DNA of 64,000 nt, taken from Actinobacteria bacterium UBA7524 (lineage in GTDB: Bacteria > Actinomycetota > Coriobacteriia > Anaerosomatales > UBA912). How positions within the stretch are numbered: the first letter of the stretch is position 1; every line of letters begins with the position of its first letter. The DNA is taken from the NCBI GenBank assembly GCA_002478275.1, contig DLMY01000016.1, forward strand, positions 1 to 64,000. Reading direction: 5' to 3'. Made by a program: the position numbers and the translations under genes. Under the pieces are notes generated by a model. The model made no database searches. It was not told the DNA's origin and was given only the letters and a program-made list of their open reading frames with translations. Below are positions 39,740-45,096 of this stretch, piece after piece.

Positions 39740-40915
39740 TCAGGGGCGCTTTCTCGGCAACATCCGGGCCGCCAGACGCCCCAGCGCAGGCACGTGAAGT
39801 GTGATCGCCTGGGGAGGGCACAGCTCCTGGCAGCAGTAGCATCTGATGCATGCACTCCGGTCGAATGCAGGGCCGTCTGAACCCAGATCGACGGCCCCGA
39901 CGGGGCAGACCTTCCTGCAAGTCCCGCAGAGGGTGCACGCGACCGCACCGGTGAATTCAGGGCGGGCGAGCAGGTGTGCATTCGCCGCGTCGTTCAACCA
40001 GCTCGGCATGCGGCTCATGGGGTCCGAGGCCGGAAGGCGGAAGTCCGGGGGTGCGAGCTCACGCCATGGCACGCCCAGGACATCGATCTCATCTGCGGTC
40101 GTAGGGACCAGCCCCCGGTTCGCAGCAGCACGGTTCGTGTAGACCTCCATCGGGTCGAACCCGGCCATCGCGGATGCGACCACGTCGAGTGCTGCGCAGT
40201 CGGCCGAGGCCATCAGTGCGCCTATCTTGCGCGGATGGCCTCCTGCCGGGCCGTCCCCTTCCATGCCTACGACGGCATCCATGACGGCCAGCGCAGGCCT
40301 GCAGACCCGCATCAGGTCCACCAGCATCTCGGCGAACTCGTTTCGGCCCGGTACCTTGAGGTGGAAGGTCGCTTTCTCCAGGCCGGGAATGCACCCGAAA
40401 AGGTTCTTGACCGCGCCCGTGAACATCATGAACCCGTGCGTCTTGAACTTGGGGACGCTGATCAAGACGTCGGCCTGGGCCACCGCGCGCCCTATGGTGA
40501 ACGCCCCGAACAGCGCGGGATCGTGCGTGGTGACGCGAACGGGGTCGTCGTCGAAGAGCAGCAGCGGGACGTTCTCCTCGGCACATACCTTCGCGATGCC
40601 GCTCGTCTGGTGGATCTGCCGAACCCACGCCGGGGTGTTGGGTCCACCGGGGCTGTCGCCGACGCTCACTTCGCCGCCCGCCGAGCGGACCGCGTGGATC
40701 AGCGCCCGCACCACTTCCGGATGAGTGGTGACGGCCCTGTCGGGCTCGGCCTTCGACAGCAGATTGACCTTGAGGAGCACGTTCTGTCCCGGAGAGACGA
40801 ACGCGCCGAACCCGCCCAGCGGTTCAAGAGCGTTCTCAAGCGCCGAGGAGACATCTTCTGTCCGGTACGAGGAGCACTCAGCCACAGAGACGCGATGGTC
40901 GGAGGGCGGTGTCAC
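39740..40915 (-). CDS. DUF362 family protein with C-terminal 4Fe-4S dicluster
   Basis: LLKVNLL, TTHPEV, GDSPG, PKFKTH, AVKNLFGCIPG, MEGDGP; CTLCGTC..CP and CIRCYCCQELCP. Confidence 0.88.
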   Translation of the reverse strand: MTPPSDHRVSVAECSSYRTEDVSSALENALEPLGGFGAFVSPGQNVLLKVNLLSKAEPDRAVTTHPEVVRALIHAVRSAGGEVSVGDSPGGPNTPAWVRQIHQTSGIAKVCAEENVPLLLFDDDPVRVTTHDPALFGAFTIGRAVAQADVLISVPKFKTHGFMMFTGAVKNLFGCIPGLEKATFHLKVPGRNEFAEMLVDLMRVCRPALAVMDAVVGMEGDGPAGGHPRKIGALMASADCAALDVVASAMAGFDPMEVYTNRAAANRGLVPTTADEIDVLGVPWRELAPPDFRLPASDPMSRMPSWLNDAANAHLLARPEFTGAVACTLCGTCRKVCPVGAVDLGSDGPAFDRSACIRCYCCQELCPPQAITLHVPALGRLAARMLPRKRP

Positions 40916-40925
40916 GATTCGGGTT

Positions 40926-41267
40926 CTAGAGGGCGCTTCGTGTGAGCCGGTTACCGACGGCCTTCAAGATGGCCGGGTAGGAGACGGCCCCGTCGTACAG
41001 CGGGACCCCATCGACCACGGTGACGGGATAGAGCAGGCCGCGCGCCTCGATCTCCTGGACGATGCGGGCGTTCGTCTCCCTGACCCCGGCATCGCTGACA
41101 TCGTGATAGATGATGCGCGCTGCGTCACCGAAGCGACGATCCATCTCCTCACCGATGATGGCGGTGATCTCCTCCGGAGACCACGATGGACCTCAACCCC
41201 CGCTGTAGCAGGAGGTGTAGGTGGGAAGATCGAACACCTCGACTGTGATCGGCGAGTGCTCTGTCAT
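40926..41267 (-). CDS. Predicted 113-aa selenoprotein, thioredoxin-like fold (ArsD/YuzD-like), C-x4-U motif
   Basis: ATG 41267 with GAAGGAG RBS; MTEHSPITVEVFDLPTYTSCYSGG-TGA-GPSW reads in frame into ORF 40926-41144; SECIS-like hairpin follows the TGA. Confidence 0.8.
41164..41184 (-). promoter_or_regulatory. SECIS-like hairpin of the small selenoprotein
   Basis: GTGGTCTCC-GGA-GGAGATCAC at +9 to +29 after TGA (41195-41193); loop GG at +18/+19, like the fdhA SECIS. Confidence 0.65.
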
Positions 41268-41278
41268 GCTTTGCTCCT

Positions 41279-41479
41279 TCATGCCGGACGAACAGCTCCG
41301 CCTGCGCAGACGCGCATGCACACGGCGCAACCCTTACACAGGGACTCGATCACCCTGTAACCCCGTGACCCCGGATACGGACCGCCTTCTACAGGTACGA
41401 TAGCACCCGTCGGACACACTCGTCTCGACGGACAGGTGTCCGAACGGTCGCAGGCGGCGTTGTCGATCGTTACAAGCAT
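41279..41479 (-). CDS. Small ferredoxin-like 4Fe-4S protein
   Basis: CDRSDTCPSRRVCPTGAI and CKGCAVCMRVC; GGAAAG RBS. Confidence 0.85.
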   Translation of the reverse strand: MLVTIDNAACDRSDTCPSRRVCPTGAIVPVEGGPYPGSRGYRVIESLCKGCAVCMRVCAGGAVRPA

Positions 41480-41518: not shown

Positions 41519-41547
41519 AGTATACCCCATGGGGTATACCGATGCAA
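41519..41547 (-). promoter_or_regulatory. Promoter with CsoR/RcnR-type operator
   Basis: Minus-strand TTGCAT-17bp-TATACT; perfect 20-bp palindrome GTATACCCCATGGGGTATAC (41520-41539) covers the spacer and -10 box. Confidence 0.75.
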
Positions 41548-41620: not shown

Positions 41621-42775
41621 GTGCGCATCAAGATGACGGACACCAACCGGAAGCTGCTCGTCACCATGTTGGCGGCCGGCATCGGCATCGGCATCGCCTT
41701 TCCCCTGATAGCCGGATTGTTCGTCGTTCCCAAGAGCCCACAGCTGTGGGTGGTCTTCTGGATACTGTGTCTTGCTGCGGGGATCGGCCTTGGCCTGCTT
41801 TGTGTATTCGTCTCGGTGCGAACGGGGGACGGATTGTTCCGCGAAGTGTTGCGAGAGGCGCAGAAGCGCTACTCGATCACCGTGGACATGAGCGGTTCCG
41901 CTGACGACATGCAGAAGGAAGTCCTTTCGTTGCTCGACAGGCTGAACTCCCTTCTCGAGAGTGCCACGTCGATCAACAACGACATGCGCGCGCTGACCTC
42001 TCAGGTGCTTGCTGCGACGGAGCAGCAGGCGTCCGGTGCTGCGGAGCAGGCGGCGGCGGTCGCGGAGACATCTGCAACGGTCGAGGAGCTCGCTCAGACC
42101 TCCAAGCAGATCGCCGACAATTCCACGGCGGTGGTCAGCGTGGCCGAGCGCACACTCGCAAGTGCGGAAGAAGGCATGCAGTCGGTGACCGACACCGCTG
42201 AGGGCATCGAGGAGATCCGGGTGAGTACGCAGCAATCCTCCGACCGGATCCTTGTGCTGGGTGAGCGTAGTCAGGAGATCGGAAGGGTCCTGGTCATCAT
42301 CGATGACGTGGCTGAGCAGACGAAGATCCTCGCGCTGAACGCCGCTATCGAGGCTGCCCGAGCCGGCGAGGCCGGCAAGGGTTTCGCGGTCGTCGCCGAG
42401 GAGATCCGCAAGCTGGCCGATTCGGTCACCGAGTCCACCCAGGAGATCGGCCGTGTAGTCAGAGAGATACAGGCGTCCACCTCGCAACTCATCATGTCGA
42501 CCGAGCGTGCGGCCAAGAAGGTGGAAGAGGGCAAGGCGCTCGCGCAGCGTACGCAGGATTCACTGGACAAGATCGTCAGCCAGGTCGAGGAGACCACTGA
42601 TTCGGCCAAGCAGATCTCCATAGCCACTCAGCAACAAAGGACGGCATCCGACCAGGTCGTGCTTTCAATGCGTGAGGTCGCCCAGGTAAGCCAGCAGGCC
42701 GCCGAAGCCTCAAGACAGATCACCGCGGCCATCGTGGACCTCAATCAGCTTGCCGATTCACTGCTGATAAGGTGA
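41621..42775 (+). CDS. Methyl-accepting chemotaxis protein (2 TM, minimal sensor)
   Basis: [45 protein letters not shown]. Confidence 0.93.
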
Positions 42776-42996
42776 GGACGCATTCTCGTTATGACTGCTA
42801 TTCTGGTAGGAGAGGGTAGGGATTCTCCTTTGCGTGGCGAAATGTCCAGAGTAGGCGTGAACCGTCTGCTCTGAGCATGTGTGAGTCCTGTTGAGCGGGT
42901 GGGCTTGTTCGGATATCGTTAGCGCTGTGGGCGGAGGCTAGTGCCGCCTTTCACGTGTTCGAAACCGGCCCCGGACGTGATCAAGGAGAGATGTGT

Positions 42997-45096
42997 ATGG
43001 CGAAGATCTCACTGGATGGGTTCAAGGACCCTATCCGCCGGCCGCGGTTCATCATCTGGACGGGCGTGGCCGTCCTCATGCTGGCCGCCGTCGTGATCGT
43101 CGCGTTGGGGGTGACATCGACCTACTGGTTCTGTGCAGAGGGCTGCCATAAGGTGCAGGACGACACGATTCTCGCGTATGACCGTTCATCACACTCCGAG
43201 ATCTCGTGTATGGCCTGCCATATGCCGGTTAACGCCGACCCGATCACCTTCGTGCTGCATAAGGCAGAGGCTCTCGGCGAGCTGTATCTCACCGCTACCA
43301 ACAACTTCGAGTTGCCCCTGAACGGGCATTCGCATGTAGCCCTTGAGATGCCTGAGGGCCAGTGCACGCAGTGCCATTCAAGCAACCGCAAGATCACGCC
43401 GAGTCCCGGCATCATCATCGACCACGAGATACATCATGAGAAGGAAGTCAGCTGTACGATGTGCCACAACCGTGTGGCGCATCCTGAGGACTTCGAGCTC
43501 ACGCTGACGGACCCGAAGACCGGCGAACCCAATCGTCCACACGACGACTGGATGCTCATGACCGCGTGCTTCCGGTGTCACAGCCTCGAGGACGGGGCCG
43601 AGGCACCAGGCAGGTGCGCGGCGTGCCACCCGAAGGACTTCGAGCTCAAGCCTGACAATCACCTCGTTGAAGGCTTCTTCCCGCGTGGTCACGCTGACAT
43701 GGCGATGGATGCCATCGCGAGTGTCGAGGCCGCTACTTCCGGCGAGCACGGTGAAGAGGGCGAAGCCGAGGAAGAGGGCGAAGCCGAGGAAGAGGGCGAA
43801 GAAGAGACCGGGACCGAGTCGCAGGAAGACGCTTCTTTCGGCATTGCTCGGGCCTACGCTTCTGGCGGTGCCCACAATCCTTGGGCAGACAAGATCCCTG
43901 CAGTGGCCGAGGTCAACTACTGCTCGACGTGCCACCCGCAGACGTTCTGCAGCAACTGCCACGGCATGGAGATGCCGCACCCCGAGGAGTTCCGCACCAA
44001 GACCCACCGGGACCTCGTGGCAACCGCGGCAGACAAGTGCGATTACTGCCACAACACCGAGGAGACCAACTACCTGTTCTGTAACGACTGCCACCATGGT
44101 AGCGCCTCGAACTGGGAGTACGATCCTGCGGTCGCCTGGCAGACACAGCATGCTCAGACCGTGGTCGCAAATGGCATAGACCTGTGTCTCGAGGCCTGCC
44201 ACGTGCAGAAGTTCTGCCTTGACTGTCACACGAGTCTGATGCCGGTGCCCGGTTCACACAGGGCCGCAGACTGGCTCCGCAAGCCTGCTGATGCGCTTGG
44301 CGTGCACGCTGAGGCGTTCAAGGGTCAGCCGAGTGCATGCGAGATATGTCACGGTCCCGACATGCCGAACGGCAATGCATTCTGTCGTGGCTGCCACCAG
44401 CTCGACGTCCCACACCCGCAGGAGTTCAAGCAGTTCCACTCCAAGACGGGCAAGGACTCACCCGCAGTGTGTGCGAACTGCCACACGTACCGCGAGCTTT
44501 GTAGTGACTGTCACCACACCGGTGCTGTTGACGGCACTCCGTGGAACAACATCCACGGCGGCATAGTCAATGAGAGCGGTGCGGCCGGCTGCCTCGAGAA
44601 GTGCCACAAGCAGGAGTTCTGCGTGAACTGTCACATCTCGCGCAACATAGTCCCCGCATCTCACAACGCGGCAGGCTGGACCAATCGTGCGGCGCTGTCG
44701 ACTCCGGCTCTGCACCCGGCTGCCTATACTCAGGCAACAGACAGCTGCTCGTATTGTCACGGTGGCGGTACGCCCGCGGAGAATCAGTTCTGTACCGATT
44801 GTCACGTGCTCGAGATGCCGCATCCTTCTGGATTCGGCGCGAAGGGCAAGGGCAATGGCGGAGCGCACCAGGCTGGCCTTACTGACGGCTCCTTCACGAG
44901 ACCGCAGTGTCAGAACTGTCACAGTCAGGCGTTCTGCGATGGATGTCACCATGACTACACCGGTCAGCAGCGTTGGGTGAACTACCATCCTGCTCCGGTG
45001 AAGGAGAATGGTGCACAGCCGTGCTTCGACTGCCACGTGGAGACTACCTGCTCGTACTGTCACGTGCGACTCGCGTCACAGTACATCAATCAGTAG
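42997..45096 (+). CDS. Membrane-anchored NapC/NirT-type multiheme cytochrome with long heme extension (~24 hemes)
   Basis: N-terminal TM, WFCAEGCH..SSH..SCMACH; 21 CxxCH plus 3 CxxxCH; AAGGAG RBS. Confidence 0.88.
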   Translation: MAKISLDGFKDPIRRPRFIIWTGVAVLMLAAVVIVALGVTSTYWFCAEGCHKVQDDTILAYDRSSHSEISCMACHMPVNADPITFVLHKAEALGELYLTATNNFELPLNGHSHVALEMPEGQCTQCHSSNRKITPSPGIIIDHEIHHEKEVSCTMCHNRVAHPEDFELTLTDPKTGEPNRPHDDWMLMTACFRCHSLEDGAEAPGRCAACHPKDFELKPDNHLVEGFFPRGHADMAMDAIASVEAATSGEHGEEGEAEEEGEAEEEGEEETGTESQEDASFGIARAYASGGAHNPWADKIPAVAEVNYCSTCHPQTFCSNCHGMEMPHPEEFRTKTHRDLVATAADKCDYCHNTEETNYLFCNDCHHGSASNWEYDPAVAWQTQHAQTVVANGIDLCLEACHVQKFCLDCHTSLMPVPGSHRAADWLRKPADALGVHAEAFKGQPSACEICHGPDMPNGNAFCRGCHQLDVPHPQEFKQFHSKTGKDSPAVCANCHTYRELCSDCHHTGAVDGTPWNNIHGGIVNESGAAGCLEKCHKQEFCVNCHISRNIVPASHNAAGWTNRAALSTPALHPAAYTQATDSCSYCHGGGTPAENQFCTDCHVLEMPHPSGFGAKGKGNGGAHQAGLTDGSFTRPQCQNCHSQAFCDGCHHDYTGQQRWVNYHPAPVKENGAQPCFDCHVETTCSYCHVRLASQYINQ
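43753..43806 (+). repeat. 18-bp tandem repeat encoding an acidic EEGEAE linker
   Basis: GAAGAGGGCGAAGCCGAG x2 plus a degenerate third copy. Confidence 0.85.

Follow-up and report, generated by a model that had tools for sequence, protein, structure and literature searches.

The interval 40926..41267 of the window (the whole 64,000-nucleotide stretch analysed here) is a genuine small gene truncated by annotation programs. Judged from the comparisons below, it almost certainly belongs to a real selenoprotein family that is absent from the checked catalogue of 119 families, of a kind that is itself already known. The gene lies on the minus strand, a point on which the earlier note was silent. 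Read from 41267 to 40926, it encodes 113 residues and has one in-frame TGA, at codon 25 (41195-41193); an AAGGAG stands 6 nt ahead of the ATG at 41267. The features of the locus are as follows.

40926..41267, minus strand: predicted selenoprotein gene, 113 aa by translation; thioredoxin-like fold, C20-x4-U25-G-P loop, conserved Pro81 (YPV)
41193..41195, minus strand: in-frame TGA (putative Sec25), from the translation and from TGA in 80/80 loci (best 80 of 118)
41164..41184, minus strand: SECIS-type hairpin from folding and frozen codons; 9-bp stem, GGA loop starting 17 nt past the UGA
41274..41279, minus strand: ribosome-binding site AAGGAG, read from the sequence, overlapping the ferredoxin stop codon
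41279..41479, minus strand: small ferredoxin, 66 aa, 7 Cys (C-x5-C-x5-CP, CxxCxxCxxxC), weak Pfam Fer4 matches; first gene of the operon
39740..40915, minus strand: protein with DUF362 and two 4Fe-4S domains (Pfam PF04015, E 1e-58), an optional third gene 10 nt downstream
41522..41537, no strand: palindrome ATACCC-N4-GGGTAT, CsoR/CstR-family operator-like, conserved across loci
41519..41547, minus strand: putative sigma-70-type promoter (TTGCAT, 17 nt, TATACT), with columns conserved across 81 loci

The in-frame TGA and its hairpin

The standard ORF track holds only a 72-aa frame starting at 41144, which is 123 nt 3' of the ATG at 41267. The earlier note had placed the true start at this upstream ATG, with VEVFDLPTYTSCYSGG-U-GPSW reading in frame and a YPVTVVDG motif in the same product. 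The translation bears out each of these points. The overlap of AAGGAG with the ferredoxin stop codon likely couples translation of the selenoprotein gene to that of the ferredoxin. Among the best 120 database matches, 118 are fragments of 69-87 aa, and such shortened entries are labelled DUF1462 or YuzD.

A genome scan gave 118 relatives, the best 80 of which were kept as the locus set; their titles mostly name uncultured Coriobacteriia or Actinomycetota, and some Eubacteriales. Codon 25 is TGA in all of these best 80 loci, whose 80 proteins are all distinct, and a Cys stands five codons 5' of it in every one. The upstream peptide and its Cys are also conserved among homologues, indicating coding conservation on both sides of the UGA. 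Natural Cys forms at the UGA position exist as well (P0005, P0123, P0183 and many C-x3/4-C-G forms), and SA0798 has Cys there too. Homologues with TGA or Cys at this codon, which the earlier note had asked for, are thus both found, and the lack of upstream conservation that it had named as damaging is not seen. Its other concern was that reads might show TGC or TGG. No alternative letter is listed at the TGA positions in contigs of two sequencing runs, one of which (X1) may be the assembly's own source and is non-independent, and the other (X2) partial.

The gene is present in 39/41 genomes, with one TGA in each; an apparent absence in G036 was rejected, as its contig ends at the TGA. Across the order it is found in 140/146 genomes, a search with a longer query in which end stops are therefore counted too, and all 12 loci opened from it have TGA at the site. 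A metagenome pattern that left out the local subtype and demanded TGA and Cys, with neither the downstream ORF nor TCT required, gave 26 matches, of which 24 are homologous ORFs at 38-66% GC; L177 and L179 had been dropped as chance matches before counting. Of 401 genomes sampled across the phylum, 28 match the family, C-x3-U forms among them, and none of the 20 listed genomes of the same class outside the order does. In the distant alignment A2, conservation was too low throughout for a locus search. The C-x3-U forms (L204-L211, L221; C-G-F-G-U-G-S) have a GCU/GGC-type loop in place of GGA. They occur in two copies in some genomes and often stand behind the same operator and a ferredoxin.

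Set beside the bSECIS limits (loop 16-37 nt after the UGA, G in the loop, MFE <= -7.5), the hairpin has a spacing of 17 nt, a G in its GGA loop and an MFE of -16.7 kcal/mol over the 43 nt past the UGA. Against shuffled sequences it is only modestly better (z -2.50 over a stretch of 66 nt, and between -1.65 and -1.79 over three further stretches). The codons beneath it are frozen: Ser is TCT in 78 of the best 80 loci (of 118) versus 23/490 Ser codons elsewhere in these genes, and the two Glu codons are GAG in 80/80 of the same loci versus 502/636. TCT also recurs in 18/18 distinct distant forms. Over 26 sequences, with the structure taken from the window sequence, stem cells are paired in 82.5% (76.1 with sd 1.1 in shuffles) and covariation is higher than in any of 500 shuffles; double-change pairs are not above shuffles (368 of 500), and the outer pair is weak. 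A likeness to the fdhA hairpin, claimed in the earlier note, holds in part, since the fdhA loop lies 18 nt past its UGA and begins GG, but is 5 nt long and not 3. A genome-wide scan for TGA followed by a GGAG-loop motif was rejected as non-specific (127 matches, mostly chance).

SelA occurs in 36/41 genomes and in 3/4 same-family genomes, tRNA-Sec in 4/5 genomes tested, and SelA together with SelB in 11/12 distant carriers of the family gene. G011 (99% complete), a single Sec-loss event, has no SelA, no tRNA-Sec and no trace of the family gene; it keeps the palindrome and the ferredoxin, DnaJ-domain and EamA genes in order. G175 (97% complete) has the TGA form with SelA/SelB not detected and possibly unassembled. 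At G020:C7:85516-86697, selA is in several pieces with internal stops and the TGA family gene is kept, which may reflect assembly error or decay.

In the window's own genome (assembly 83% complete), SelA, SelB and tRNA-Sec were not found, and the remaining sel genes may be unassembled; the best tRNA-Sec candidate proved to be tRNA-Ser(cga). At G000:C37:55938 (+), the contig breaks off within a selD gene whose start carries an in-frame TGA (UxxK) and a hairpin. Two fdhA genes, at window 1187 (+) and G000:C23:10647 (-), have in-frame TGA and near-identical SECIS-like hairpins.

The incomplete machinery, the predominance of fragments in the database and six Gly-x-Gly-Pro-type database proteins carrying Trp at the UGA site would all suit a true stop or a Trp codon, with the 72-aa fragment as the product. 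We consider this reading very improbable. The Trp forms come from contigs of ~1 kb or shorter, and the DNA corresponding to one of them reads TGA (L164 vs P0246). The conserved upstream peptide, Cys and hairpin codons and the natural Cys forms stand against it, as do the tracking of SelA by the gene and the in-frame TGA in selD and fdhA of the same genome. UGA at codon 25 therefore very probably codes for selenocysteine, as far as sequence can tell. In mechanistic terms, SelB would recognise the hairpin and insert Sec25, a step in which we place equally high confidence. The unannotated selenoprotein family proposed in the earlier note is upheld by the invariant TGA (best 80 of 118), the frozen hairpin codons, the Cys forms and the absence of the gene from the Sec-less G011.

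Fold and kinship to DUF1462/YuzD and ArsD

The structure was modelled from 32 sequences with Cys substituted for Sec (pLDDT 90, pTM 0.82). Model confidence is lowest in the C-x4-U loop (residues 21-30, pLDDT 61), whose geometry is not that of canonical CxxC. The top structural match is 1xg8, the DUF1462 protein SA0798 of S. aureus (Z 9.9, rmsd 3.2, 104 residues; Foldseek E 1.4e-4), and ArsD 3ktb matches among many thioredoxins (Z 8.0, rmsd 4.2, 93 aligned). As modelled, the fold is thioredoxin-like and nearest DUF1462/YuzD, with ArsD as a genuine second relative. DUF1462 and ArsD are both placed in the thioredoxin clan in the portions available of PMC3091736.

Sequence profiles agree with this placement. 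A single-sequence PDB search returned nothing relevant; the match to SA0798 needed a profile (E 4.9e-5), and in it U25 falls on the second Cys of CxxC and the YP motif is common to both. Against two YuzD-type rows the profile probability is 97.6%, and against six ArsD rows 96.7%; hhalign to ArsD gives 95.1% and 96.7%. U25 aligns with the last Cys of the ArsD CC-x4-C, so that C20 and U25 occupy two of the three ligand positions. The earlier note had pointed to a likeness to both ArsD and YuzD/DUF1462, with Sec in place of the last metal-binding Cys, and both statements are supported by these profile alignments and, for the relation, by the structural scores.

The window protein reaches 22.8 bits for PF07315 against a cut-off of 25 (L159 reaches 26.9, and 15/20 members have E <= 0.1) and 13.7 against 27 bits for PF06953 (ArsD); the score for NF033727 (ArsD) is 16 vs 90 for alignment member 1. 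In NCBIfam the window protein is unmatched, and none of 20 members is near a cut-off among the matches listed. A tree of 65 rows and 113 columns, poorly resolved and with deep forks open, has ArsD and YuzD on separate long branches, and Sec and Cys forms interleave in it. A join of the window clade with ArsD (support 57/49) was not used. The family is a broad group between DUF1462/YuzD and ArsD and a clean member of neither.

Could the protein be an ArsD-like carrier of soft metals or metalloids, with Cys20 and Sec25 binding As(III), Cu(I), Cd or Hg and handing them to an exporter? The homology to ArsD is real, two of the three ligand positions are occupied, and the natural Cys forms P0005 and P0123 hold the full CC-x4-C triad. 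In two genomes, arsA and acr3 stand on either side of a distinct variant with Sec in a U-x3-C-x4-C motif. A CDF exporter adjoins the repressor described below, and an HMA gene lies near L158. The arsenic ligands of ArsD include Cys12, Cys13 and Cys18 (PMC12415280, as far as available), and the position of the first of this triad is Cys in none of the best 80 loci (of 118). Genes of ars operons are absent from these 80 loci and from 26 metagenome loci (106 in total). The protein is thus not ArsD, because it lacks one of the three arsenic ligands and its gene has no ars neighbours. The gene is also single and near-universal in the order (140/146), whereas true ArsD is a separate gene in 4/41 genomes. 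The one over-cutoff P1B ATPase of the genome has an ArsR-type neighbour and no operator site on its contig, and a canonical ArsD gene accompanies the Sec variant in its ars operons. A metal(loid) carrier, the main rival of the reading favoured below, appears unlikely, at perhaps one chance in four.

The Sec variant itself is found at G352:C6 ~38190 (L203, L234:7194) and G104:C112:5781 (L202, L235). It reads G-G-U-G-P-V-C-x4-C-G-P, with a strong hairpin past the UGA, in the order arsD-arsR-arsA-arsA-(x)-variant-(zinc ribbon)-acr3. Some of these gene names are presumed from recognised motifs, and SelA is present in both genomes. Elsewhere, at G000:C34 (L183, minus, upstream of 28087), the N-terminal metal-binding domain of a CadA-like P1B ATPase has a UxxC motif encoded with an in-frame TGA. 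Its gene has a hairpin after the TGA and an ArsR-type neighbour, and it matches a catalogued selenoprotein type.

Operon, operator and predicted function

The ferredoxin lies directly upstream of the selenoprotein gene in 75 of the best 80 loci (of 118) and is missing in the other 5. The DUF362-Fe-S gene follows downstream in 31 of the same 80, some of which end early. Genes for Fe-S carriers stand near YuzD genes in Firmicutes. This neighbourhood, together with the overlap of stop codon and ribosome-binding site in the window, would suit a protein that serves the neighbouring ferredoxin as an Fe-S cluster ligand or in repair, whether as a glutaredoxin-like cluster carrier or as an acceptor for a three-Cys cluster; with 7 Cys, one cluster of the ferredoxin would have no fourth Cys ligand. 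G011, however, keeps the ferredoxin without the selenoprotein gene, the ferredoxin is missing in the 5 loci just named, and it is seen in only 4/17 distant loci. We regard an Fe-S partner as improbable, less so than a plain stop but more so than a metal carrier.

The neighbours in the 17 non-redundant distant loci were assigned by a Pfam scan of 91/118 picked ORFs, plus tblastn. They include thioredoxin in 7, a zinc ribbon of the same type in 11, a CsoR-family gene in 4 (two with His), pyridine nucleotide-disulfide oxidoreductase in 3, DUF302 in 2 and an HMA gene in 1, besides the ferredoxin in 4. The CsoR-family neighbours in L160 and L178/L181 carry the copper-type His. In L158 and L165, a TlpA/redoxin-like ORF with in-frame TGA (W-U-P-A-C) lies ~2.2 kb downstream of the family gene and is a second likely selenoprotein.

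The palindrome occurs within 900 nt upstream in 81/81 loci (the window and the best 80 of 118) and not once in 642,297 nt of other flanking sequence; the window has one copy and 100 shuffles have none. In the loci without ferredoxin (L006, L010, L055, L056), it shifts toward the selenoprotein gene. It sits in the spacer of the putative promoter and over its -10 box (TATACT/TATAAT-like), and the promoter faces the ferredoxin. A scan for consensus promoters and terminators called nothing; the promoter was missed because its -35 box matches in only 3/6 positions. On the other side, at window 41621-45096 (+), lie a divergent methyl-accepting chemotaxis protein, whose synteny is kept in 61 of the best 80 loci (of 118), and a large multihaem cytochrome, for which the figure is 71. 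The palindrome might also affect these genes.

The genome has 6 exact palindrome sites, against 0.06 expected, and 3 more with one mismatch. The exact sites precede the selenoprotein operon, a thioredoxin, zinc ribbon and DUF302 cluster, a rhodanese-domain protein, a FAD/Fe-S/CCG oxidoreductase, an SDR and one unassigned large gene. At G000:C33:31241-32620 (L107), the operator, thioredoxin, FmdB-type zinc ribbon and DUF302 converge on a two-Cys CsoR-family repressor. Tandem one-mismatch operator-like sites at G000:C30:20944 and 20987 stand before a 697-aa multihaem cytochrome-like gene. One N5 (X9) site lies between the sole CsoR-family gene found in the genome and a divergent CDF metal exporter.

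Where copper sensors have their His, this repressor carries Ser/Ala, and its first Cys is not preceded by Tyr, in 29/29 parsed proteins (of 30 loci); an x-C-x-C pattern is seen in its alignment to 4m1p and 7mq1. In 28/29, a His stands one residue off the ligand position. In the portions available of bioRxiv 2021.07.25.453692, x-C-x-C proteins are candidate persulfide sensors and x-C-H-C proteins are copper sensors. There and in PMC3902906, as far as available, the CsoR and S. mitis cst operators are given as TAC-X9-GTA. The target sites here have half-sites of the published type spaced by X8, and the link between repressor and sites is inferred because only the repressor's own site is X9. In other genomes (G005:C27, G019:C17, G020:C4, G024:C4, G037:C442, G040:C6, G012:C21), CsoR-family genes have two tandem PF02583 matches in one long frame, which suggests an extended or fused repressor.

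From the operator and its neighbours, we consider that the operon probably responds to stress from thiols or sulfur, and not to arsenic. For the protein itself, a thioredoxin-fold selenol/thiol redox protein of a thiol/sulfur-stress regulon is about an even prospect. The earlier note had left the role between a metal(loid) chaperone and a redox/sulfur carrier. The second part fits better, and the first less well, because the first ArsD Cys is absent throughout the best 80 of 118, no ars genes are nearby and the operator is common to thioredoxin and rhodanese genes. We speculate that the two-Cys repressor of the genome binds the palindrome, and that a persulfide or similar oxidant modifies its Cys pair and releases the promoter, a step that we hold to be rather better than evenly balanced. 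Sec25 and Cys20, on a flexible loop, would then attack disulfides or persulfides, cycle via a selenenylsulfide and be re-reduced by the co-regulated thioredoxin or ferredoxin; for this step the chances stand about equal.

A wider proposal is speculative and, taken as a whole, doubtful. In it, the family would link YuzD and ArsD, its selenol loop being a persulfide-handling catalyst that the 7-Cys ferredoxin feeds and a CstR-like sensor controls. Across an order of anaerobic Actinomycetota it would rank as a core selenoprotein, deleted and not Cys-swapped upon Sec loss (one case), with a sister branch that has Sec in the three-ligand loop of arsenic operons. If this is true, the sister branch would bring selenium-arsenic chemistry into ars resistance.

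Comparison with known selenoproteins and sulfur-sensing regulons

No kind of selenoprotein is commoner than the thioredoxin-fold one, and a further example is in itself no great surprise. The family is nearly universal in one order and found in other lineages, yet it is annotated as a 72-aa fragment without the active site. For the DUF1462-like group, its operator and predicted regulon offer a hypothesis of function that can be tested, and they suggest selenocysteine use in the control of reactive-sulfur or thiol stress. The family may also show how the arsenic loop of ArsD is related to a redox loop.

Table 1 of PMC13188914 (2026, 119 prokaryotic selenoprotein families) has no PF07315, PF06953 or C-x4-U entry. 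DUF1462, YuzD and ArsD were not found in the available text of PMC12013277 and PMC13188914, whose supplements could hold the family under another name. Among journals outside subscription, we found no literature linking selenoproteins or selenocysteine to DUF1462, YuzD or bacterial ArsD, and no function for DUF1462/YuzD/SA0798/COG4837. The available part of PMC13188914 describes thioredoxin-fold selenoproteins (SaoT, SelW-like, HUIPC, Sec.1, Sec.2) that, like the window protein, are small and have one Sec paired with Cys. The hairpin of the window also fits the bSECIS model given there, with a 3-nt loop starting with G and 17 nt of spacing.

With DUF1462/YuzD (PF07315; SA0798, 1xg8) the window protein shares the best fold match, the YP motif and U25 at the second CxxC Cys. 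It differs in having C-x4-U-G-P instead of CxxC, with a two-residue insertion relative to 1xg8. With ArsD (PF06953, NF033727; 3ktb, 3kgk) it shares the fold, a loop ending in C-G-P and the equivalence of C20/U25 to Cys13/Cys18. In contrast to ArsD, the window family has no Cys12 equivalent in 80/80 loci (best 80 of 118) and neither arsA nor an exporter nearby.

The regulon differs from that of copper CsoR, as the repressor has no His of x-C-H-C and no site lies on the P1B ATPase contig. It differs from CstR persulfide regulons (S. aureus, E. faecalis, streptococci) in that the target sites are one base shorter than published, a CDF exporter adjoins the repressor, and neither a CoA-persulfide reductase nor TauE was recognised at its sites. 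A selenoprotein member does not appear in the available portions of CstR regulon descriptions. In common with these CstR regulons, the system described here has a two-Cys repressor without the copper His, ATACCC...GGGTAT palindromes and a rhodanese in the predicted regulon.
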